Assembly: GCA_041652815.1 (NCBI GenBank)
Contig: JBAZGN010000001.1
Span: 573,855-637,854, forward strand
DNA from: Candidatus Omnitrophota bacterium
Lineage (GTDB): Bacteria > Omnitrophota > Gorgyraeia > Duberdicusellales > 4484-171
DNA length: 64,000 bases
Reading direction: 5' to 3'
Shown: positions 2,151-11,087 of the stretch, piece after piece
How positions within the stretch are numbered: position 1 is the stretch's first letter
Layout of the letters: every line of letters begins with the position of its first letter
The notes under the pieces: model-generated
Database searches by the model: none
What the model was told of the DNA's origin: nothing
Seen by the model: the letters and a program-made list of their open reading frames with translations, nothing else
Position numbers and translations under genes: made by a program

Positions 2151-4193
2151 ATGGGTAAATTGTATTTTGTATTCGGAGTGCATAACCACCAGCCTGTAGG
2201 GAATTTCCCGCATATTTTTAAAGAAGCCTACGAAAAATGTTACTTTCCATTCCTTTCTCTCCTCGAAGATTTTCCCAAGATAAAGTTTTGTATTCATAAT
2301 TCCGGCCCGCTTTACGATTGGATGAAGGAGTACGGTAAGGATTACCTCACGCTTCTTAAGAAGATGGTTAAACGCGGGCAGGTTGAAATTGTAAGCGGAG
2401 GGTATTATGAGCCTATTCTGCCTATAGTTTCAGATTGTGATAAATATGGCCAGATTAATCTGATGAATGATTTCATAGAAAAGGAGTTTTCAAGTAAGCC
2501 TTGCGGCATATGGACCGCAGAGAGAGTTTGGGAGCCTTATCTGGCAAGAGTAATTGGCAATTGCGATTTGAAATATACATTTTTAGACGATACGCATTTT
2601 CGTTTCGCAGGCCTGCGAAAGCCGGAGTTCTTCGGATACTACACAACCGAAGACTGCTCCCAGTCGATATCTGTGTTTCCTATAAGTAAAACTTTAAGAT
2701 ATAAAATACCCTTTTCTGAGGCGCATGAAGCTTTCAGTGTTTTAGACGGCTTAAGGCAAGAAGATGATACGCTGATTACTCTTTTTGATGATGGAGAAAA
2801 ATTCGGGCTTTGGCCCGGCACTTACGATTGGATTTACAATAAAGAATGGCTTAAGAAATTTTTGACTTTTCTTAGCAATTCGGATGATATCGAAACCATA
2901 ACCGCAAAAACGGCTTTTGAAAAATTTAAAACTAACGGGATAGTTTATCTGCCTACAGCCTCTTACGAAGAAATGGGCGAATGGGTGTTAGAACCCAAAA
3001 ATTTCTTTGCCTATGAGGAGCTTCGCGATTTACTTAAAGCAAATGATAAGCTGGAAGAATATAAAGATTTTATAAGAGGGGGGTTCTTTCGCAATTTCTA
3101 TCATAAATACCCGCGGCTTAACTATATGCAGAAAAGAATGCTTTATTTAAGCCAAAAAATAAATACAATGGCAAACCCTAAGGTTGATAAGAAAATATTT
3201 ACCAGCCTTTACAAGGCGCAGACTAATTGCGGTTATTGGCACGGAGTCTTTGGGGGGTTTTACCTCGGGCATATCCGTTCGGCAGTATATGAAAATTTAA
3301 TCGATGCAGAAAATATGCTTGATGAAAAGTATAATAGCGAAAAAATAACAGTGGACTATGCAGACATAGATTTAGACGGCAAGTATGAAATAATGCTTAA
3401 GAATGATAAACTGATTTGTTGTTTTTCGCAAAAAGGCGCGGCTCTTTGTGAAATGAGTTTACGTAATCCCCGGATTAACCTTGTTAATACGATAACGCGC
3501 AGAGAAGAATCATACCATAAAAAGATTCTGCAGAATGTAAAAAAAGAAGGGGCTGTTGCTACGATTCATGACATAGTTAAACAGAAAGACAAGGATTTGG
3601 ACAAGTTCCTTATCTATGACCAATACGAAAGGCTTTCACTTATGGATCACCTTTTGGATAAAGGCATTACCGTAAGCGATTTTAATCTCCAAAAAGGCAT
3701 AAATACTTTAAGTGATGAACTATATGAATGGAAGATTAAGAAAGAAAGCCAAAAAGTAGCCCTTAACTGCAATTTTTCCAATGGTGGCTTGGATTTTTCG
3801 AAAATAATTGAATTCTCGCAAAATTGCGGTTTTGATATAAACTATAAATTTAACAGAAAAAATATCTTGAAGGATTATAATTTTGGTATAGAATTTAATA
3901 TATCATTATTATCGCTGGGAGATGTTTTTGCGAAAATAGGTAAGGAAGAAATAAGCCTATCTGAGCCACGCGAGTTTAAAGAGGTTGGTTCTTTTACAAT
4001 AGTTGATAAGTTTAAAAAGATAATTCTCGAGTTTAATTTCGATAAAGCGCACATCTGCAGCATGCCGGTATATTCGGTTTCTTCTTCAGAGTCCGGTTTT
4101 GAAAAAGTTTATCAGCAAATAGCAATTCTTTTTATTTTCAAAGGCAAGGATACTCTGAAATTTTCTTTGGACATTAAGCACAAACACAATTAA
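2151..4193 (+). CDS. Glycoside hydrolase family 57 (large, 680 aa; amylopullulanase / glucanotransferase-like)
   Basis: VFGVHNHQPVGNF N-terminal GHF57 motif. Third consecutive GH57 gene. Confidence 0.75.
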   Translation: MGKLYFVFGVHNHQPVGNFPHIFKEAYEKCYFPFLSLLEDFPKIKFCIHNSGPLYDWMKEYGKDYLTLLKKMVKRGQVEIVSGGYYEPILPIVSDCDKYGQINLMNDFIEKEFSSKPCGIWTAERVWEPYLARVIGNCDLKYTFLDDTHFRFAGLRKPEFFGYYTTEDCSQSISVFPISKTLRYKIPFSEAHEAFSVLDGLRQEDDTLITLFDDGEKFGLWPGTYDWIYNKEWLKKFLTFLSNSDDIETITAKTAFEKFKTNGIVYLPTASYEEMGEWVLEPKNFFAYEELRDLLKANDKLEEYKDFIRGGFFRNFYHKYPRLNYMQKRMLYLSQKINTMANPKVDKKIFTSLYKAQTNCGYWHGVFGGFYLGHIRSAVYENLIDAENMLDEKYNSEKITVDYADIDLDGKYEIMLKNDKLICCFSQKGAALCEMSLRNPRINLVNTITRREESYHKKILQNVKKEGAVATIHDIVKQKDKDLDKFLIYDQYERLSLMDHLLDKGITVSDFNLQKGINTLSDELYEWKIKKESQKVALNCNFSNGGLDFSKIIEFSQNCGFDINYKFNRKNILKDYNFGIEFNISLLSLGDVFAKIGKEEISLSEPREFKEVGSFTIVDKFKKIILEFNFDKAHICSMPVYSVSSSESGFEKVYQQIAILFIFKGKDTLKFSLDIKHKHN

Positions 4194-4321: not shown

Positions 4322-4507
4322 ATGGCGTTTCCAGGAAGAAAACCTTTTACAGAAAAATCAGCTTCTAAAATTGACGAAGTGAAGCTTAACCAGATGATAA
4401 GAGAAAGAGCTTATTACATTTGGGAAAGTAAAGGCAAACCGAAAGGTCAAGATCAAAAGATCTGGCTTCAGGCAGAAAAAGAGGTTTTGTCTAGAGTAAG
4501 GAGATAA
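4322..4507 (+). CDS. DUF2934 family small protein
   Basis: RAYYIWE..G.P.G.D...WLQAEKE signature. Strong RBS AGGAGGATAAA ahead of the ATG. Confidence 0.6.
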   Translation: MAFPGRKPFTEKSASKIDEVKLNQMIRERAYYIWESKGKPKGQDQKIWLQAEKEVLSRVRR

Positions 4508-4671: not shown

Positions 4672-5067
4672 ATGAAAGCGGTAAAAGGAGAGGAACTCAT
4701 ATTAACTTGCGACAACAAAGTCGGAAAACTTGAGGAACTGACAACTCTCTTAAAAGAAAAAAACATCAATTTAAGAGGTATTAGTGCTTTTGTTTATGAT
4801 TCAAAGGCGGCATTTCGGCTCATAACGTCCGATAATATAAAGGCGAAAGAAGTAATTAAGAAAATAGGTTCTCTAGAGATGAAAGAAGTAATCATCGTAG
4901 ATGTGCCTGATGAAGTTGGGCAACTTAATTTAATTGCAAAGAAACTAAAAGATGCCAACATAGACCTTACTCATATTTATGGAACCACCTCTAAGCCTCA
5001 CGAATCAGCAATCATCGTATTTGCTTCAAGCGACAACAATAAAGCGCTTGCAATTATTGCTGCTTAG
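4672..5067 (+). CDS. ACT-domain containing protein (tandem ACT-like halves)
   Basis: 131 aa, two similar halves with ACT-like beta-alpha-beta-beta-alpha-beta patterning. RBS GGGAGGT before the ATG. Confidence 0.45.
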   Translation: MKAVKGEELILTCDNKVGKLEELTTLLKEKNINLRGISAFVYDSKAAFRLITSDNIKAKEVIKKIGSLEMKEVIIVDVPDEVGQLNLIAKKLKDANIDLTHIYGTTSKPHESAIIVFASSDNNKALAIIAA

Positions 5068-5072
5068 GTTTA

Positions 5073-6368
5073 ATGCGCAATCATATATCTACAAAGCATG
5101 CTATCGCCCCCTCAATTCAGCCTTTGACTTCGCTTGGGACAAGCCCTTCAGTTTCATTTAAGTTTCACTTTCCATCATCATTTTTGTGGGGAGCGGCCAT
5201 TTCAAGCTACCAGACGGAAGGAGCAAATTATAATTCTGACTGGTACGTTTTCGAAAAGGAAAAAAAGATACAAGAAGCTGCTCGCGCCGCAAATCACTAT
5301 GAACTTTTTTCCAAGGATTTTAAGCTGGCAAAAGAGCTTAATCTTAAGGCTGTCAGATTATCTTTTGAGTGGGCAAGAATTAATCCTAAGCCTGGCGTTT
5401 ATTTAGAGGAAGAAATAAATCACTATAAGGAAGTAATCCAAACGCTTAAAATCCTCGATTTGAAGCCTTTTGTAACCCTCCATCATTTTACAAACCCTAT
5501 ATGGTTTGCGCAAAGCGGTAGCTTCCAATCTTCAAAAAACATCGATTATTTCCTGGGATATCTTAAAAGAATAGTAGAAGAATTTAAAGATGACATCCAG
5601 CACTGGTTAATTTTTAATGAGCCCCTTGTGTATGTATATAACGGTTATATCTGTGGCAGATGGGCGCCTGGCGTAAAATCCATACGCACAGCTCAAAAGG
5701 TTTTGCGCAATGTCATAAGCGCTTATATTGATGGCTACAAGGAAATAAAAAATATTTACAAGGAAGATAATATTCCCTCTTATGTTTCGGTTGTAAACCA
5801 CATAAGGAAATTTTCTCCCTGCCCTAGTTTTAACTTTGGACAAAATTCTATTTCAGCTTATTTTAAAAATAAGATATCAAATTTCGACATAATTGATTAT
5901 TTAACAAAAAAAACAAGCCTTGATTACCTGGCGGTAAATTATTACTGCAAAGAATATGTAAAGTTTAAAGGGTTAATAGGTTGCGAGTGCCCGCATCAAT
6001 TTCATAAGGAAAGAAAAAATTATTTAGGCTGGTATATTTATCCGCAAGGCCTCTATGAACTGCTTAAAAAGCTTAAAGGGTATAATTTGCCGATTTATGT
6101 AATGGAAAATGGCTCTGCCGAGACAGAGGATTCTTTATATAAAGAGTATTTATTTTCTCATTTAAAGTGTGTAGCCAGGGCTATGTCAGAGGGCATAGAC
6201 ATAAGGGGTTATTTTTGGTGGTCGTTAATAGATAACTTTGAATGGGATAAGGGTTTTGGCCCCAGGTTTGGTTTAATTGATGTAAATTATGATACATTTG
6301 AAAGAAGAATAAAACCATTCGCCTATGAATATGCTAAAATATGCAAGGAGAACAAGATAGAGATATAG
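5073..6368 (+). CDS. Glycoside hydrolase family 1 (beta-glucosidase-like)
   Basis: FLWGAAISSYQTEG N-terminal motif, LIFNEP acid/base motif, YVMENG nucleophile motif. The listed N-terminal ~35 aa are low-complexity; the true start is probably a downstream TTG/GTG ~20 aa before FLWG. Confidence 0.7.
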   Translation: MRNHISTKHAIAPSIQPLTSLGTSPSVSFKFHFPSSFLWGAAISSYQTEGANYNSDWYVFEKEKKIQEAARAANHYELFSKDFKLAKELNLKAVRLSFEWARINPKPGVYLEEEINHYKEVIQTLKILDLKPFVTLHHFTNPIWFAQSGSFQSSKNIDYFLGYLKRIVEEFKDDIQHWLIFNEPLVYVYNGYICGRWAPGVKSIRTAQKVLRNVISAYIDGYKEIKNIYKEDNIPSYVSVVNHIRKFSPCPSFNFGQNSISAYFKNKISNFDIIDYLTKKTSLDYLAVNYYCKEYVKFKGLIGCECPHQFHKERKNYLGWYIYPQGLYELLKKLKGYNLPIYVMENGSAETEDSLYKEYLFSHLKCVARAMSEGIDIRGYFWWSLIDNFEWDKGFGPRFGLIDVNYDTFERRIKPFAYEYAKICKENKIEI

Positions 6369-6379
6369 ATAGTAAATAA

Positions 6380-6520
6380 AATCACAAATCACAATATACA
6401 AATTACAAACAATTTACAATAAACAATGACTAAAATTACAAATAGAAAGATATCTTTTCGGTATTGTGATTTTGTAATTGTTTATTGTTTGTAATTTGCG
6501 ATTTGGTAATTGTAATTTTT
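6380..6520. promoter_or_regulatory. Large imperfect inverted repeat built from ACAAATTACAAACAATTTACAATAAACAAT words, upstream of the cNMP-patatin gene
   Basis: Left arm ~6380-6425 is the reverse complement of right arm ~6460-6515. Confidence 0.5.
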
Positions 6521-6527
6521 AAAAAAT

Positions 6528-8405
6528 ATGGATATCAAAGAAGCGAAATTCATTTTAGCGAATACGTTGCCTTTTAATAAATTAAAAGAAGAAGAGATTG
6601 ACGAATTTTTAAGCATTTGCGAATTACGTAAATTGAGCCACGGAGAAATTTTATACAAAGACCAAGATCCCCCTGATTATTTTTATTTTTTATTGCGCGG
6701 AAGAATTGTTATTTTAAAGCAAGATGATATGCAAGAATCAGAAATAGAGCTTATAAAGAGAGGAACATCTTTTGGTATAATTTCTCTTTTTAACGAAGAG
6801 CCGCATTCAGTAACTACAAAATCAATAGAAGAGTCGTTCGTACTTAAAGCAGACAAAGAAAGGTTCAAGGATTTTTTAAATAAATACCCTTTAATTTCTT
6901 TGGAATTTTACAGAATACTTTCACAAAGGATACGTGCGCGTTCCGGAAAGAAAAAAATCTTTCAGTGTAAACGTATAGCCGTTATGGGCGCACATTTAAG
7001 CGGTAAAACCAGCTATATGTTTAACCTGGGAGTTAAATTAAAAGAGCAGACCCGCAAAAACGTAATATGTATTGAATTTAGTTCATCCGATAGTTTCGGC
7101 CTTGATAAACTTACGATTTACAGTAAAATACTTAACCTTGAAGATTATAAAGAAGAAACACTTAAAGATTACATAATAAAAAGTAATTTACAAAATAATA
7201 ATGAAATAGCTATTGATTGTCTTTTAGTAAAGATAAATGATATCCTTGAAATACCTTCTTTGCTTAATTTCCTTTCTGAAAATTATCATTTTATAATTTA
7301 CGAAATGCCGGATCAGTTCTTTGATACTAATGTGCAAAATTGTGTATCCCCGGTTGACTATTTTCATTTTCTTGTTTTACCCAACAAGGAAGGCGCGTTA
7401 AAAGCTGCTTCAGTGATAACAGCTCTCAACGAGGCTGATCCTTTAAGCATTGACAGGGTAAAAGTTATTTTGAGTTATTTTGCCGCGCAAGACCGTCTGC
7501 CGGCGAAAGACATAAAAGAAATTCTGCACGCGAATATCTACGCAACTTTGCCTTCGTTCGGTGAAGAGTACGTAAACGCGGTAAGAAGAATAAGCAAAGA
7601 GGTAGGTGAAGTAGTAATCGGGCTTGCTTTAGGAAGCGGCGGAGCATATGGTTTTGCCCACATAGGAGTATTAAGAGTGCTTGAGGAAAATCATATACCC
7701 ATAGATATTATATGTGGTTCAAGTATAGGCTCTGTCATCGCCAGCCTTTGGGCGCTTGGGAAAACTCCGGATGAAATTGAAAAGTTCATGATTGAATTTG
7801 CAAAGAAGCTAAATCTTTTTTCAGTTCGTGGTTTTTCTTTTCCTTTCAAGGGCTTGTGGCGTGCCAAATACCTGGAAAATATATTAAAAAAAGTCTTCAA
7901 AGATAAAACTTTCTACGATCTCAAACACCCGCTTAAAGTAGTTGTGTTCGATTTTTTAAGAAAAGAAGCGAAAATCTTGGAAGATGGCCCTCTTTATAAA
8001 GCTGTTGCTGCAAGTTGTGCTTTGCCTGGTGTTTTTGAGCCAATAAACTTTAAAAACAGAATGTTGCTTGATGGAGGGGTTTTAAATCCTTTGCCTACTA
8101 AAGTGCTTTTGAATTATGGCGCAGATAAAATAATAGCCGTAAATGTTACGCCTTCCCAGGAAGAAATTATTGAAGAATACGATAAAAAAAATAAATTTCA
8201 TATCCTTGATTTTATATTCGGAAGCATTGAAACAATGCAAAGGCAATTTATCGAACAGGCAGTAACTGTTGCTGATTGCGTCATACATCCAAATTTCGGC
8301 ACTTTACGCTGGCTTGAGTTTGAAAAAGTGCAGGATTTTATAAAGAAAGGCGAATTAGCTACCGTAAACAAACTGGATGAGTTAAAAAAGATGATTAATG
8401 TTTAA
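6528..8405 (+). CDS. Tri-domain protein: N-terminal cyclic-nucleotide-binding (CAP-type) domain + central degenerate MinD/ParA-like P-loop domain + C-terminal patatin-like phospholipase
   Basis: cNMP-binding fold at aa ~20-130. Central domain has IAVMGAHLSGKTS...NLG, a Walker A in a ParA/MinD-like context with the signature Lys replaced by Ala. Patatin motifs GLALGSGGAYGFAHIGVL (Gly-rich), GSSIGS (GxSxG) and LLDGG (DGA/G). Confidence 0.8.
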   Translation: MDIKEAKFILANTLPFNKLKEEEIDEFLSICELRKLSHGEILYKDQDPPDYFYFLLRGRIVILKQDDMQESEIELIKRGTSFGIISLFNEEPHSVTTKSIEESFVLKADKERFKDFLNKYPLISLEFYRILSQRIRARSGKKKIFQCKRIAVMGAHLSGKTSYMFNLGVKLKEQTRKNVICIEFSSSDSFGLDKLTIYSKILNLEDYKEETLKDYIIKSNLQNNNEIAIDCLLVKINDILEIPSLLNFLSENYHFIIYEMPDQFFDTNVQNCVSPVDYFHFLVLPNKEGALKAASVITALNEADPLSIDRVKVILSYFAAQDRLPAKDIKEILHANIYATLPSFGEEYVNAVRRISKEVGEVVIGLALGSGGAYGFAHIGVLRVLEENHIPIDIICGSSIGSVIASLWALGKTPDEIEKFMIEFAKKLNLFSVRGFSFPFKGLWRAKYLENILKKVFKDKTFYDLKHPLKVVVFDFLRKEAKILEDGPLYKAVAASCALPGVFEPINFKNRMLLDGGVLNPLPTKVLLNYGADKIIAVNVTPSQEEIIEEYDKKNKFHILDFIFGSIETMQRQFIEQAVTVADCVIHPNFGTLRWLEFEKVQDFIKKGELATVNKLDELKKMINV

Positions 8406-8614
8406 TCCCTTTTGCCAGAATTCCCTGCCCGCTCGCCCGCCCGCCGTACGGCGGACAGGGCTACGACCGCGGATGAATAGCGGAAAGGGGTGCCGTCCGC
8501 TTTAAGTGGGCGAAAGGAAAATAGCCCATGGCACGCCTGTCTACCAGGCTGAAAGCCTGTTGGACTGCCTTCGGCAGCCAGGCCAGTGCGGGCTCCAGAA
8601 AGGAAAGATTTATA

Positions 8615-9334
8615 ATGAAGAAAAAATTGGGATTGTTCAGCAAATGGTGCAGCTTATTTTTTTTATGTTTTGTTTTAACGTCCGGCTTAGGTTTATGTGA
8701 GGATATCGAGGAAAGATTTGGGCCGGAACACTCATTGTTTTATGAAGTTTTTTTTAACGGTATTCCTACCGGAAAGATAGAATGGAGATATTTAGGAAGA
8801 GAAGTCGTTGACGGCCGCAATGCAGAAGTAATTCTGCTTAATTCCGATACAAATATACTTAAGCTTCTTAACCTAGAAAGCAAAGAAAAAGTATTCATAG
8901 ACTCGAAAACTTATCTTCCGCTTAAAGTAGAAAGGGACGTGGTATTCTTCGGAAAAAAAGAGTTGATAAAAGAAGTATATAATCAGGATACAGGATTAAT
9001 TACTATAACTAAAAGCAATTCCGGCAAGAAAGAAGTATATTTGCGCCAAAAAAAACCCATACACAATATTTTGTCTTTGTTGTATTTTTTCCCGAAAAAT
9101 ATAGATTTGGTAAAAAACAAATTACTTTACTTTAATCTGCCCACGCAAAAAATTACAATAAAGATGTTGTATGAAAAGGATATTGCTTTCGGCAAAGGCA
9201 CAAAAGATATTTATTTTTTATCAGGCAGGGGAGACAAGAAGTTTAATCTTTGGCTTGATAAGAGAGAAAGAATTCCGGTTAAAATGGAATTTATAGTTCC
9301 TTTAGGCAAAATTACAATCGTCAGAAAAAGCTGA
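8615..9334 (+). CDS. Secreted/lipoprotein-like hypothetical protein (possibly DUF3108-like)
   Basis: Internal Met of the listed 8528 ORF followed by the signal-like MKKKLGLFSKWCSLFFLCFVLTSGLGLC. The upstream 29 codons lie in a GC-rich structured leader. Confidence 0.45.
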   Translation: MKKKLGLFSKWCSLFFLCFVLTSGLGLCEDIEERFGPEHSLFYEVFFNGIPTGKIEWRYLGREVVDGRNAEVILLNSDTNILKLLNLESKEKVFIDSKTYLPLKVERDVVFFGKKELIKEVYNQDTGLITITKSNSGKKEVYLRQKKPIHNILSLLYFFPKNIDLVKNKLLYFNLPTQKITIKMLYEKDIAFGKGTKDIYFLSGRGDKKFNLWLDKRERIPVKMEFIVPLGKITIVRKS

Positions 9335-9354: not shown

Positions 9355-10377
9355 TCATTCAATAATAATAAGCGAATTTTTCCCGCCGTATGAATCATCC
9401 TCGCTAAGTTTATTATGCGGGTCGGTAATCCAAGCGCCACCTGCCAGGAATTTATAACGGTATTTACCTTTCTCGAGAGGAATATTTAAAGTCCATATAT
9501 CTTCGCCTATCTTTCTTAATTTATAGCTTTCCTGTTTTTGCCAGTTATTAAAATCACCTATAACGTATACGTTGTCTACCTTTTCTCCTTTCAGGAAAAG
9601 TTGAGTCCAGGCTTTGCCGGAAGTTATATTTAATATTTCTTGCGCCAGTGCCGTAAAATCTTCGGCTCCCCTTGAGTCAGGCATATAATCAAATATATTT
9701 TTGCCGTTGGCAGCGGCTTCTTTAAGATGGACATTTGAACGTACGGCTGTATTTAACAACAAACTGCCGAGTTGTTCCTTAACTCTCTGGATAAAGTTCA
9801 ATGCGAACCGTGAACGTTTATCCAGCTGATTCAAAAGGTAAAAACATATAGGGGTTTTACCTTTAAATTCTTTAAGCATGATAATTATGTCTTTTAGTAT
9901 TTCGACACCGCGAAGGGAAAAATCACAAATACTAAGAGGAATAAGCGAATATTCGCTTGCTTGCAGTGCATTTAGCGTAATCAATCCCAGGTTAGGAGGG
10001 CAATCTAAAATGCAATAGTCGAAATCCGCGGATACAGCTTTAAGAAACAAAGAAAGAATATCCAACCGGTCATCTCTTTGGGAAAATTTATGCTCGAGCG
10101 CAGCAAGCCCTATGCGTGAGCCTATGAAGTAAAAATTTTCAGAAACGGATTGATATAGCGTAGCTTCCGGCAAGCTTTCATTTTTTGCTATTTTTTCTAA
10201 GATATCGGTTATGTTAAAAACGCTTTCTTTTCTAAGGGCAAATGTTGCATGTGCCTGGGGGTCTAAATCTATGAGCAAAGTTTTAAATCCCTTTTTGCTT
10301 AAAGCCGCCGATAGATTAACCGCGCTAATTGTTTTTCCGCAGCCGCCTTTTTGATTGACTACAGAAATTATTTTCAT
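9355..10377 (-). CDS. ParA/MinD-family ATPase fused to a C-terminal CBM48 / AMPK-beta-type glycogen-binding domain
   Basis: Deviant Walker A NQKGGCGKT at the N-terminus with a ParA/Soj-like body. The last ~85 aa (VYVIGDFNNWQ...W.L...G.YRYKF.A.G.W..DP...GG.NS.I) match the AMPK1_CBM/CBM48 consensus. RBS GGGAGG lies 6 nt before the ATG. Confidence 0.8.
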   Translation of the reverse strand: MKIISVVNQKGGCGKTISAVNLSAALSKKGFKTLLIDLDPQAHATFALRKESVFNITDILEKIAKNESLPEATLYQSVSENFYFIGSRIGLAALEHKFSQRDDRLDILSLFLKAVSADFDYCILDCPPNLGLITLNALQASEYSLIPLSICDFSLRGVEILKDIIIMLKEFKGKTPICFYLLNQLDKRSRFALNFIQRVKEQLGSLLLNTAVRSNVHLKEAAANGKNIFDYMPDSRGAEDFTALAQEILNITSGKAWTQLFLKGEKVDNVYVIGDFNNWQKQESYKLRKIGEDIWTLNIPLEKGKYRYKFLAGGAWITDPHNKLSEDDSYGGKNSLIIIE

Positions 10378-10427: not shown

Positions 10428-11087
10428 TTAAATTAAAATAAGATCTTTAATCAGTGTCCAATTTATCTTCTCTTTATCCTGAGGATAAAAATAGAGGATA
10501 ATCTGTTTTACCTGGTAGAGGTTCGTATTCTGTAAATTTGAGCCGGTAAAGTTTATCGGCACTTTTATGAAAGAAGGGTCGTTCTGGGTTACTTCAATTA
10601 TAACCGGGTTTAAGGAGTTTGAGAAAAACCTGGTATCTTTCACAACAACCGCTATATTTAATGGCGCATCAGACTTTTTTAAATACAGAGAAAGAGAATT
10701 TGACCGTAAATCTATTGGTTTTTTAAGATTAAAGCTTATTGCAACGCGTTCCTTAGGAATTGTCAGATAGATAAAAGCATTTTCTTTTTTCATCAACCGT
10801 TCGTCCTGGGCTATGCACCTGGTTGATTCAAGCATGTCTTTCGAAAGAAGAGAGATTCCGCTATTAGAGGTATCCGGTATTTGCCGCGCTATGACCATGA
10901 AATCATATTTCATAAAAAAGAATATGCCTGCAGCAAGAATTAGGATGGCGCTCGCTCCAAGTAAAGCAAATCTTTTTTTAGAGGTTTTCTTTTTGCGTTT
11001 CTTTTTGGGAGGAGAAAAAAAGGTGTCCTTTAGCCTCTGAGAGTCTAAATAAGCGTAAGAAAAGAAAGGATTGTCTCGCTTGTCCAC
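10428..11087 (-). CDS. Bitopic membrane protein (basic cytoplasmic N-terminal tail KKKRKKK, one TM, beta-rich C-terminal domain); immediately upstream, same strand, of the ParA-CBM48 gene
   Basis: One hydrophobic segment ALLGASAILILAAGIFFFM. 50-nt gap to the parA-like gene contains a small hairpin. Confidence 0.45.
   Translation of the reverse strand: MDKRDNPFFSYAYLDSQRLKDTFFSPPKKKRKKKTSKKRFALLGASAILILAAGIFFFMKYDFMVIARQIPDTSNSGISLLSKDMLESTRCIAQDERLMKKENAFIYLTIPKERVAISFNLKKPIDLRSNSLSLYLKKSDAPLNIAVVVKDTRFFSNSLNPVIIEVTQNDPSFIKVPINFTGSNLQNTNLYQVKQIILYFYPQDKEKINWTLIKDLILI

Follow-up and report, generated by a model that had tools for sequence, protein, structure and literature searches.

A patatin-type lipase family of Omnitrophota with a MinD/ParA-fold domain between a cyclic-nucleotide-binding fold and the hydrolase

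The stretch of DNA analysed here (the window) comprises 64,000 nucleotides of a Candidatus Omnitrophota genome (GenBank assembly GCA_041652815.1, contig JBAZGN010000001.1). It contains a single copy of a gene encoding a three-domain protein, in which a cyclic-nucleotide-binding (CNB) fold, a MinD/ParA fold and a patatin lipase domain follow one another. The open reading frame is uninterrupted, encodes 625 amino acids and lies at positions 6528-8405 of the plus strand, where a preliminary description of the sequence had placed it. The three-domain build proposed in that description was borne out by Pfam, AlphaFold2, Foldseek and HHalign. Conservation was counted in 289 full-length homologous sequences, of which 124 belong to clade A, including the window protein, and 165 to clade B; median lengths are 620 and 683 amino acids respectively. 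The gene and the parts of its product are listed below.

6528-8405, plus strand: gene for the three-domain protein (CNB fold, MinD/ParA fold, patatin), complete in the list of open reading frames, 625 codons and a stop codon
6528-6932, plus strand: CNB-fold sensor domain, residues 1-135 (Pfam core 34-120; PF00027, Foldseek)
6762-6815, plus strand: non-canonical phosphate-binding cassette GTSFGIISLFNEEPHSVT, with Ile84 for Glu and His93 for Arg
6933-6965, plus strand: linker RARSGKKKIFQ, 11 residues, with low model confidence at residues 135-139
6966-7607, plus strand: central MinD/ParA-fold (SIMIBI) domain, residues 147-360 (AlphaFold2, Foldseek, HHalign)
6987-7010, plus strand: classic Walker A motif GAHLSGKT, residues 154-161, without the ParA/MinD signature Lys (motif and alignments)
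7257-7310, plus strand: family signature SLLNFLSENYHFIIYEMP, including the Walker-B-equivalent strand, with Glu259 at the ParA/MinD Asp position
7617-8402, plus strand: patatin-like lipid acyl hydrolase domain with a C-terminal extension of the RssA/PlpD type, residues 364-625 (PF01734; PlpD)
7629-7652, plus strand: Gly-rich oxyanion-hole loop LGSGGAYG, residues 368-375 (G371 in 289/289 homologues)
7716-7730, plus strand: GxSxG nucleophile elbow GSSIG, residues 397-401 (G397 in 287/289, Ser399 in 288/289, G401 in 289/289)
8070-8078, plus strand: DGG motif, residues 515-517 (Asp515 in 288/289, G516 in 289/289)

The Pfam Patatin model (PF01734) matched residues 366-527 with an E-value of 1e-36 and 127.4 bits, against a threshold of 27.7. 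The preliminary description had called this a complete patatin on the strength of its Gly-rich loop, the GSSIG serine (Ser399) and the DGG aspartate (Asp515), and the counts agree, Ser and Asp each being present in all homologues but one. The Ser399-Asp515 dyad and the oxyanion loop are intact and conserved almost absolutely. By sequence, the closest solved structure was the passenger domain of Pseudomonas aeruginosa PlpD (5fqu, E 3e-27). Foldseek searches with the patatin domain returned PlpD (5fya, E 1e-18, with a template modelling (TM) score of 0.85 normalised to target length) and potato patatin (1oxw, E 6e-10). The nearest NCBIfam model was RssA (NF007623); as the score of 113.1 bits is below the equivalog cut-off of 272, the domain is assigned to a related subfamily and not regarded as an RssA orthologue. 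The CBASS_lipase model of NCBIfam gave 44.9 bits where 200 are required, and the similarity to lipases of CBASS and other defence systems is weak and at the level of the domain.

At the N-terminus, residues 34-120 matched the cNMP_binding model (PF00027) with an E-value of 5e-17 and 62 bits, against a gathering cut-off of 27.5, and Foldseek returned the CNB domains of CRP, GlxR, PKA and PKG with E-values of approximately 1e-9 to 1e-10. These matches uphold the CAP-type cyclic-nucleotide-binding fold that had been proposed for this part of the protein. The phosphate-binding cassette of the domain, FGIISLFNEEPHSVT, does not have the canonical form F-G-E-[LI]-A-L...R-[ST]-A with its conserved Glu and Arg. 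Alignments made with HMMER to a PDB CNB domain and with MAFFT placed His93 at the position of CRP Arg82 and PKA RI-alpha Arg209, and Ile84 at the position of CRP E72, the conserved Glu that contacts the ribose 2′-OH. The references in the computed MAFFT alignment were E. coli CRP and the CNB-A domain of PKA RI-alpha, with manually entered sequences. His occupies position 93 in 287 of the 289 homologues, and Glu is found at position 84 in only 23, all of them in clade B. Because both canonical contacts, to the phosphate and to the ribose, are replaced, binding of cyclic AMP or cyclic GMP in the canonical manner is doubtful, and gating of the lipase by either nucleotide, judged from these residues, is doubtful too. 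The earlier suggestion of a nucleotide-gated enzyme is weakened accordingly.

The middle of the protein gave no significant Pfam match between residues 140 and 360 or thereabouts. No ParA-type Pfam model exceeded its gathering score with the whole window protein, and the isolated middle domain scored 15.7 bits with AAA_31, for which 27 are required. Among individual middle domains of the family, 13 of 31 touched AAA_31 and 9 of 31 touched CbiA. A family profile was made from 35 aligned full-length homologues, and a middle-domain profile was cut from it at residues 138-362. The best match of this profile in the PDB was the ParA-family ATPase 3ea0 (E 0.002), with MinD structures scoring more weakly. 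An AlphaFold2 model of residues 138-362 showed an alternating beta-alpha pattern and had a predicted local distance difference test (pLDDT) score of 88.7 and a predicted TM score (pTM) of 0.88. The top 50 PDB matches to this domain in Foldseek were all MinD, FlhG, FleN, ParA, NifH or BchL structures (best E 7e-10, TM score approximately 0.65-0.72); 3ea0 and TadZ (3fkq) ranked among the top structural matches.

When 1.84 billion representative sequences were searched with the middle-domain profile, only 196 proteins were found at E <= 1e-3. These comprised the lipase family itself, a divergent clade of three-domain proteins of 640-713 amino acids, and a weak tail of proteins of approximately 390 amino acids. 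In two members of the divergent clade (P0130 and P0165), AAA_31 scored above the Pfam gathering threshold. The proteins of the tail consist of a receiver-like N-terminal domain of approximately 140 amino acids followed by an ATPase domain of the MinD/CpaE type, and are the closest relatives that the middle domain has outside the fusion. HHalign aligned the middle-domain profile with these proteins over 194 columns with a probability of 99.7% (E 9e-26), and Walker A, switch I and Walker B were all in register. These results establish true homology between the middle domain and the MinD/CpaE-type SIMIBI NTPases. The MinD/ParA fold named in the preliminary description, which had called for searches with hidden Markov models (HMMs) and for structure prediction, is present, as are the patatin catalytic residues; these were the two features on which that description had made its case depend.

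We also considered whether the middle domain might be a recent copy of the ParA encoded nearby (described below). HHalign against that single ParA sequence gave a probability of 0.6%, over the P-loop only, and the idea was rejected because there was no significant similarity beyond the P-loop.

The AlphaFold2 model of the full-length protein had a pLDDT of 81.6 and a pTM of 0.79, and only short stretches, at residues 135-139, 220-225 and 433-440, were of low confidence, in keeping with three domains packed into a compact unit. In this model, the 11-residue linker joins the C-helix of the CNB domain to beta-1 of the MinD-fold domain, and the last helix of the MinD-fold domain (residues 346-360, with an invariant Arg354) leads within three residues into beta-1 of the patatin domain. 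Lys142 and Phe145 of the first linker are invariant in the alignment of 35 homologues. As modelled, the MinD-fold domain is inserted with short linkers, and the last helix of each domain nearly abuts the first strand of the next. In the Foldseek searches, no single solved structure matched more than one domain of the protein.

The Walker A motif of the middle domain, GAHLSGKT, is of the classic GxxxxGK[ST] type and not of the deviant type xKGGxxGK[ST]. As the preliminary description had noted, it lacks the signature Lys of ParA and MinD proteins. The corresponding position is Ala155 when the motif is aligned with KGGCGKT of the neighbouring ParA, or His156 under the one-residue gap preferred by HHalign, and neither 155 nor 156 is ever Lys in clade A. 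In place of the conserved Asp residues of switch I and Walker B (hhhhD) in MinD/CpaE proteins, the window protein has Glu183 and Glu259, as aligned by HHalign. Glu259 forms part of the family signature SLLNFLSENYHFIIYEMP, which registers in HHalign with the sequence YDYIIIDTP of the MinD/CpaE-type relatives; E251, Y253 and H254 of this signature are invariant in clade A in the alignment of 35 sequences.

The two clades differ markedly at the nucleotide site. The full GxxxxGK[ST] motif is intact in 100 of 124 clade A sequences (81%) and in none of the 165 of clade B, and GK[ST] is present in 104/124 and 26/165 respectively. The P-loop Lys (Lys160) is found in 112/124 members of clade A (approximately 90%) and in 28/165 of clade B (17%), where the position is occupied by Arg in 82/165. 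Thr or Ser is kept at position 161 in both clades (113/124 and 146/165). At position 259 in Walker B, clade A has Glu (110/124) and clade B has Asp (138/165), and traces of a deviant KGxG motif are seen in 30/165 clade B sequences. The changes appear coupled, in that a classic P-loop goes with a Walker B Glu in clade A and a KGxG[KR]T-like loop goes with Asp in clade B. Switch I seems by eye to change likewise between the clades; the counts were made for Walker B only.

Since the patatin dyad is retained in practically all members whereas the P-loop Lys is mostly lost from clade B, selection is strict on the lipase and relaxed on the NTPase chemistry, and the middle domain can be read as a decaying NTPase. 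The coupling of the changes between clades suggests compensatory remodelling of the nucleotide site and not simple decay. The NTPase chemistry of the middle domain has been relaxed, and remodelled differently in each clade. The MinD/CpaE-derived domain may be on the way to becoming, or may already be, a pseudo-NTPase, with nucleotide binding possibly retained in clade A.

The surroundings of the gene were compared in 14 independent contexts, namely the window, L001, L002, L003 (= L084/L085), L004, L081-L083, L086 (= L087) and L088-L092. The neighbouring genes in the window that recur in this comparison are the following.

4672-5067, plus strand: ACT-domain protein gene, upstream of the GH1 gene (PF01842/PF19571; in 9/13 assessable contexts)
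5073-6368, plus strand: GH1 glycosidase gene, upstream of the lipase gene (PF00232, E 3e-72)
8615-9334, plus strand: DUF3108-like gene, downstream of the lipase gene (open reading frame from 8528; likely true start ATG at 8615, MKKKLGLF...)
9355-10377, minus strand: gene for ParA fused to an AMPK1_CBM/CBM48 glycogen-binding module (AAA_31, E 1e-43; AMPK1_CBM, E 1.5e-11; P-loop KGGCGKT)

The most constant partner of the lipase gene is GH1, which lies immediately upstream in 11 of the 14 contexts; in the window, both catalytic motifs of its product are present (NEP at 182 and ENG at 345). GH1 overlaps the lipase gene by 4 nucleotides in L004 (GH1 at 6001-7194), whose lipase is 34% identical to the window protein, and by 20 nucleotides in L089 (GH1 at 6791-8020). 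The genes for GH1, ACT, lipase and DUF3108-like proteins often form a string with overlaps of 4-20 nucleotides or gaps of approximately 10. Potato patatin hydrolyses glycolipids, and a common glycolipid substrate for GH1 and the lipase is conceivable. The DUF3108-like gene follows the lipase gene in 8/13 assessable contexts; its product in the window has a weak match to PF11306 (E 1e-4, under the cut-off) and an N-terminus that resembles a signal peptide on inspection.

The preliminary description had pointed out that the ParA-CBM48 gene is convergent with the lipase gene and separated from it by one gene for a small secreted protein. This arrangement was found (the intervening gene is the DUF3108-like gene, 8528/8615-9334). 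It had further asked whether the two genes occur together across genomes; the comparison did not support a functional pairing. ParA-CBM48 is adjacent to the lipase gene in 5/13 assessable contexts (the window, L081, L083, L088 and L089). In L004 it lies 5 kb upstream, with unrelated genes between it and the GH1 and lipase genes, and it is absent from the other 7/13 (L002, L003/L084, L082, L086, L090 and both clade B loci). The two ParA-type modules, moreover, have no similarity beyond the P-loop. ParA-CBM48 is a lineage-specific neighbour of the lipase gene and not a constant partner.

On the far side of ParA-CBM48 lies a gene for a protein of 219 amino acids without known domains (10428-11087, minus strand). 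The two genes are conserved as a pair (59-79% and 34-69% identity respectively) near GH57 glycogen genes in L081, L083, L088 and L089, and their products are candidates for a ParA-type positioning system for glycogen granules. Further upstream in the window there is a glycogen/alpha-glucan cluster (2151-4193, plus strand) coding for a GH57 branching-enzyme-like protein, a second GH57 protein and a GH57 4-alpha-glucanotransferase, followed by a tiny DUF2934 gene (4322-4507). The cluster and the DUF2934 gene are syntenic upstream in L081, L088 and L089, whose lipases are 54-63% identical to the window protein. At the clade B locus L092 (10035-12698), the lipase gene is directly followed by MlaE, a small open reading frame, an ABC ATPase gene (MlaF-like) and MlaD, that is, a phospholipid-transport operon. 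No cyclase or other recognisable defence gene was found in the 11 annotated neighbourhoods.

Two intergenic regions flank the lipase gene, and no convincing promoter or terminator consensus was seen in either. The 159-nucleotide region between GH1 and the lipase gene (6369-6527) is AT-rich and contains an imperfect inverted repeat of 51 nucleotides (6385-6435 and 6455-6505, 71% complementary) with units resembling ACAAAT/TTGTAA; the window has no further copy of it. The 210-nucleotide stretch between the lipase stop codon and the ATG at 8615 (8406-8615) is 60% GC, compared with a window mean of 38%, and contains hairpins including GCCGUACGGC and GCCUUCGGC, with an RNA folding z-score of -2.4. 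It had no match in Rfam, nor any blastn match in the syntenic loci, and may represent a structured leader or a small RNA particular to this lineage.

A protein 100% identical to the window protein (P0001) is present in NCBI, JGI and ENA as 'patatin-like phospholipase family protein [Candidatus Omnitrophica]', and JGI labels it and other members 'NTE family protein'. More than 120 clade A homologues, with 43-90% identity, were found among the matches listed, and 524 proteins, many of which carry precomputed AAA_31, CbiA or ParA matches, came up at E <= 1e-20 in a search seeded with the clade B protein P0130. Where the source names an organism it is Omnitrophica/Omnitrophota, except for one 'Aenigmatarchaeota' metagenome-assembled genome (MAG) and a few MAGs labelled 'uncultured Planctomycetia'; the exceptions are probably noise from binning or labelling. 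With more than 500 members, the family is thus a large and conserved one that is essentially limited to Omnitrophota. In a profile search of genome contigs, the only full-length relatives among the matches listed were L001-L004, the others being mostly patatin-only proteins from Mycobacterium, Nitrospirota and other groups. One of these, L028 from Mycobacterium, was taken up as a possible comparator combining a CNB domain with a patatin and proved to be a stand-alone RssA-like patatin of 320 amino acids.

The insertion of a ParA/MinD-like module had been called unusual. Relative to described proteins this holds, as no description of the CNB/MinD-fold/patatin architecture was found in the literature searched. 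It does not hold in the sense of a one-off, because the architecture recurs throughout this conserved family and many members have AAA_31 or CbiA matches. The protein is one already deposited under generic names, with an architecture that is undescribed in the literature searched and built from known parts.

The closest parallel in domain order is neuropathy target esterase (NTE; PNPLA6 and PNPLA7) and the bacterial NTE family, in which a CNB fold is likewise N-terminal to a patatin Ser-Asp hydrolase. PNPLA6 hydrolyses phosphatidylcholine and lysophosphatidylcholine, and the role of its CNB sites is still unclear (PMC9025805). The window protein differs from NTE in having one CNB domain (by Pfam, from residue 34) instead of three, and His and Ile instead of Arg and Glu in the cassette. 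No N-terminal membrane anchor is evident, the first 30 residues being helical and part of the CNB fold, although no formal transmembrane prediction was made. The MinD/ParA-fold domain of approximately 215 residues between sensor and lipase lies outside the described NTE architecture, and the lipase domain is closest by sequence to the RssA/PlpD subgroup. Measured against eukaryotic NTE, with its three CNB domains, N-terminal transmembrane anchor and NTE-type esterase domain, the window protein is not regarded as an orthologue.

PlpD and RssA gave the best matches in both sequence and structure for residues 364-613, and share with them the Gly-rich loop, GxSxG, DGG and a C-terminal helical extension. 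PlpD is reportedly a secreted, outer-membrane passenger linked to Omp85, and RssA is a stand-alone enzyme; unlike the window protein, neither has a CNB or a MinD-fold domain. In TadZ, an atypical ATPase domain binds ATP for dimerisation beside an atypical receiver domain (PMC13170226). The receiver-like plus MinD-type layout of TadZ/CpaE is also found in the closest relatives that the middle domain has outside the fusion, and we propose by analogy that the same logic, an atypical ATPase domain dimerising beside a sensor, may apply to the lipase protein. The differences are that its sensor has a CNB and not a receiver fold, that its Walker A is classic and without the signature Lys, that Glu replaces Asp at switch I and Walker B, that there is no Tad pilus gene context, and that its C-terminal part is an enzyme domain. 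A nucleotide-sensing element is likewise combined with a patatin lipase, or with another effector, in CapV/CapE of CBASS and in Pycsar effectors, which show domain-level HMM and structural similarity. CapV and CapE, however, sense their ligand in the lipase itself and are found beside a CD-NTase, and Pycsar effectors are found beside a pyrimidine cyclase, whereas the window protein has no cyclase neighbour, a conserved housekeeping-like synteny and the additional MinD-fold domain.

Taken together, we hold with moderate confidence that the window protein represents an Omnitrophota family of cytoplasmic, allosterically regulated lipid acyl hydrolases of the patatin type (phospholipase A, lysophospholipase or galactolipase-like) with a MinD-fold coupling module. 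The CNB-fold domain would sense a small ligand, perhaps no cyclic nucleotide at all, bound otherwise than cyclic AMP or cyclic GMP is bound in CRP or PKA; such a mode is suggested by the family-wide His in the cassette and by the loss of Glu in the clade of the window protein. The MinD-fold domain would no longer be an ATP-hydrolysing positioning switch of the ParA type, given the missing signature Lys, the altered acidic residues and the dispensability of the P-loop Lys in clade B. Instead it may serve as a rigid coupling module, probably homodimerising. In clade A, where GxxxxGK[ST] is kept, a nucleotide may still bind as a structural or allosteric cofactor, for which TadZ/CpaE offers a precedent. 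Ligand status would be relayed through the MinD-fold module so that the patatin active site is opened or closed. The role would be housekeeping turnover of envelope lipids or glycolipids together with the GH1, ACT and secreted DUF3108-like proteins, and not defence or the positioning of DNA or other cargo; it is suggested by the conserved ACT-GH1-lipase-DUF3108-like string and by the Mla operon beside one clade B member.

Several observations weigh against parts of this proposal. His can still contact a phosphate, so that the domain may bind cyclic nucleotides after all. The 81% of clade A with an intact P-loop, together with the conserved Glu259 and Glu183 equivalents, could indicate real NTPase activity at a remodelled site. 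The envelope-lipid or glycolipid role is drawn from the gene neighbourhood only, with the Mla linkage at a single locus, and in the window, where gaps of 159 and approximately 210 nucleotides flank the lipase gene, co-transcription is no more than a possibility.

Other explanations were considered. On a model built upon the preliminary description, the lipase would be gated by cyclic AMP or cyclic GMP and placed on the nucleoid or membrane, in concert with ParA-CBM48, by a ParA/MinD module that cycles with ATP. The two folds it requires are real, GK[ST] is retained in the window protein together with acidic side chains at the switch I and Walker B positions, and ParA-CBM48 is adjacent in 5/13 contexts (members at 50-63% identity) and within 6 kb in the 34%-identity member. 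We nevertheless consider it distinctly improbable. The cassette lacks the canonical Arg and Glu, and the signature Lys, which ParA/MinD proteins need to form the ATP-sandwich dimer, is missing, positions 155 and 156 never being Lys in clade A. The P-loop Lys itself is lost in 83% of clade B. Since the MinD-fold domain is internal, it has no MinD-type C-terminal amphipathic helix for membrane targeting, and ParA-CBM48 is missing in 7/13 assessable contexts, including all those of clade B, and is without significant similarity to the middle domain beyond the P-loop. The surface or nucleoid localisation suggested earlier thus finds no support in the signature-Lys position, in Glu183 and Glu259 in place of Asp, or in the clade B P-loop. 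Alternatively, the middle domain could be purely a pseudoenzyme spacer, binding nucleotide in no member and fixing the geometry between sensor and lipase: approximately 19% of clade A sequences and 84% of those in clade B are without GK[ST], ParA-type Pfam models stay under threshold for the window protein, and LSExYHF, the most conserved motif of the domain, is not among the nucleotide-binding motifs of ParA/MinD proteins. This seems unlikely to us, as the clade A P-loop (100/124, with Thr/Ser161 in 113/124) and Glu259 (110/124) are kept beyond the expectation from neutral decay at 45-50% identity, and the replacement of Lys by Arg (82/165) with retention of Thr/Ser (146/165) in clade B suggests that P-loop geometry is still selected.

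A role as a single-protein anti-phage effector of the CBASS/Pycsar type, in which a cyclic nucleotide made on infection would unleash the patatin on the cell's own membrane and abort the infection, is very improbable indeed. In its favour, PADLOC matched the patatin domain to phospholipase effectors of CBASS systems (E 8e-15), and the CNB domain gave matches to TIR effectors of the Pycsar type (E 1e-6 to 1e-8). Among the structural matches to the lipase domain, the CBASS lipase CapE ranked second. These PADLOC matches are at domain level only, however, and none of the 11 annotated neighbourhoods contains a cyclase or other defence gene. CBASS_lipase falls far below its cut-off (44.9 bits against 200), and the phosphate-binding cassette is non-canonical. 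In addition, across members at 45% to 63% identity the gene keeps its place among genes for housekeeping and glycan metabolism, which points to vertical inheritance and not to a mobile defence island.

Control of patatin-like lipases usually comes from partner proteins, from secretion or from a ligand bound by the lipase itself, and to our knowledge ParA/MinD-fold domains are almost always stand-alone ATPases for positioning or assembly. Two-thirds of the protein goes unmentioned in the present names, 'patatin-like phospholipase family protein' and 'NTE family protein'. The near-invariant His, at the position where an Arg normally holds the cyclic phosphate, hints that CNB domains may have a ligand specificity not yet recognised, and the two clades, one with an intact P-loop and the other with its Lys changed to Arg or lost, offer a natural series for the passage of a SIMIBI NTPase to a pseudoenzyme. 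Omnitrophota are ultra-small and partly host-dependent, and we know of no cultured model for the phylum, for which the family provides a candidate marker protein and a candidate enzyme of lipid homeostasis. A further, more speculative possibility, which we regard as rather unlikely, is that the MinD-fold insert has been rebuilt into a working nucleotide-dependent dimerisation switch, which would integrate energy state with a second signal, read by a CNB domain of the His-cassette type that would form a new class (its ligand being other than cyclic AMP or cyclic GMP), and gate a lipase acting with a co-transcribed GH1 on envelope glycolipids or phospholipids. If true, this would be the first ParA/MinD-type module to control a lipid hydrolase directly, and would constitute a lipid-remodelling circuit specific to the phylum.

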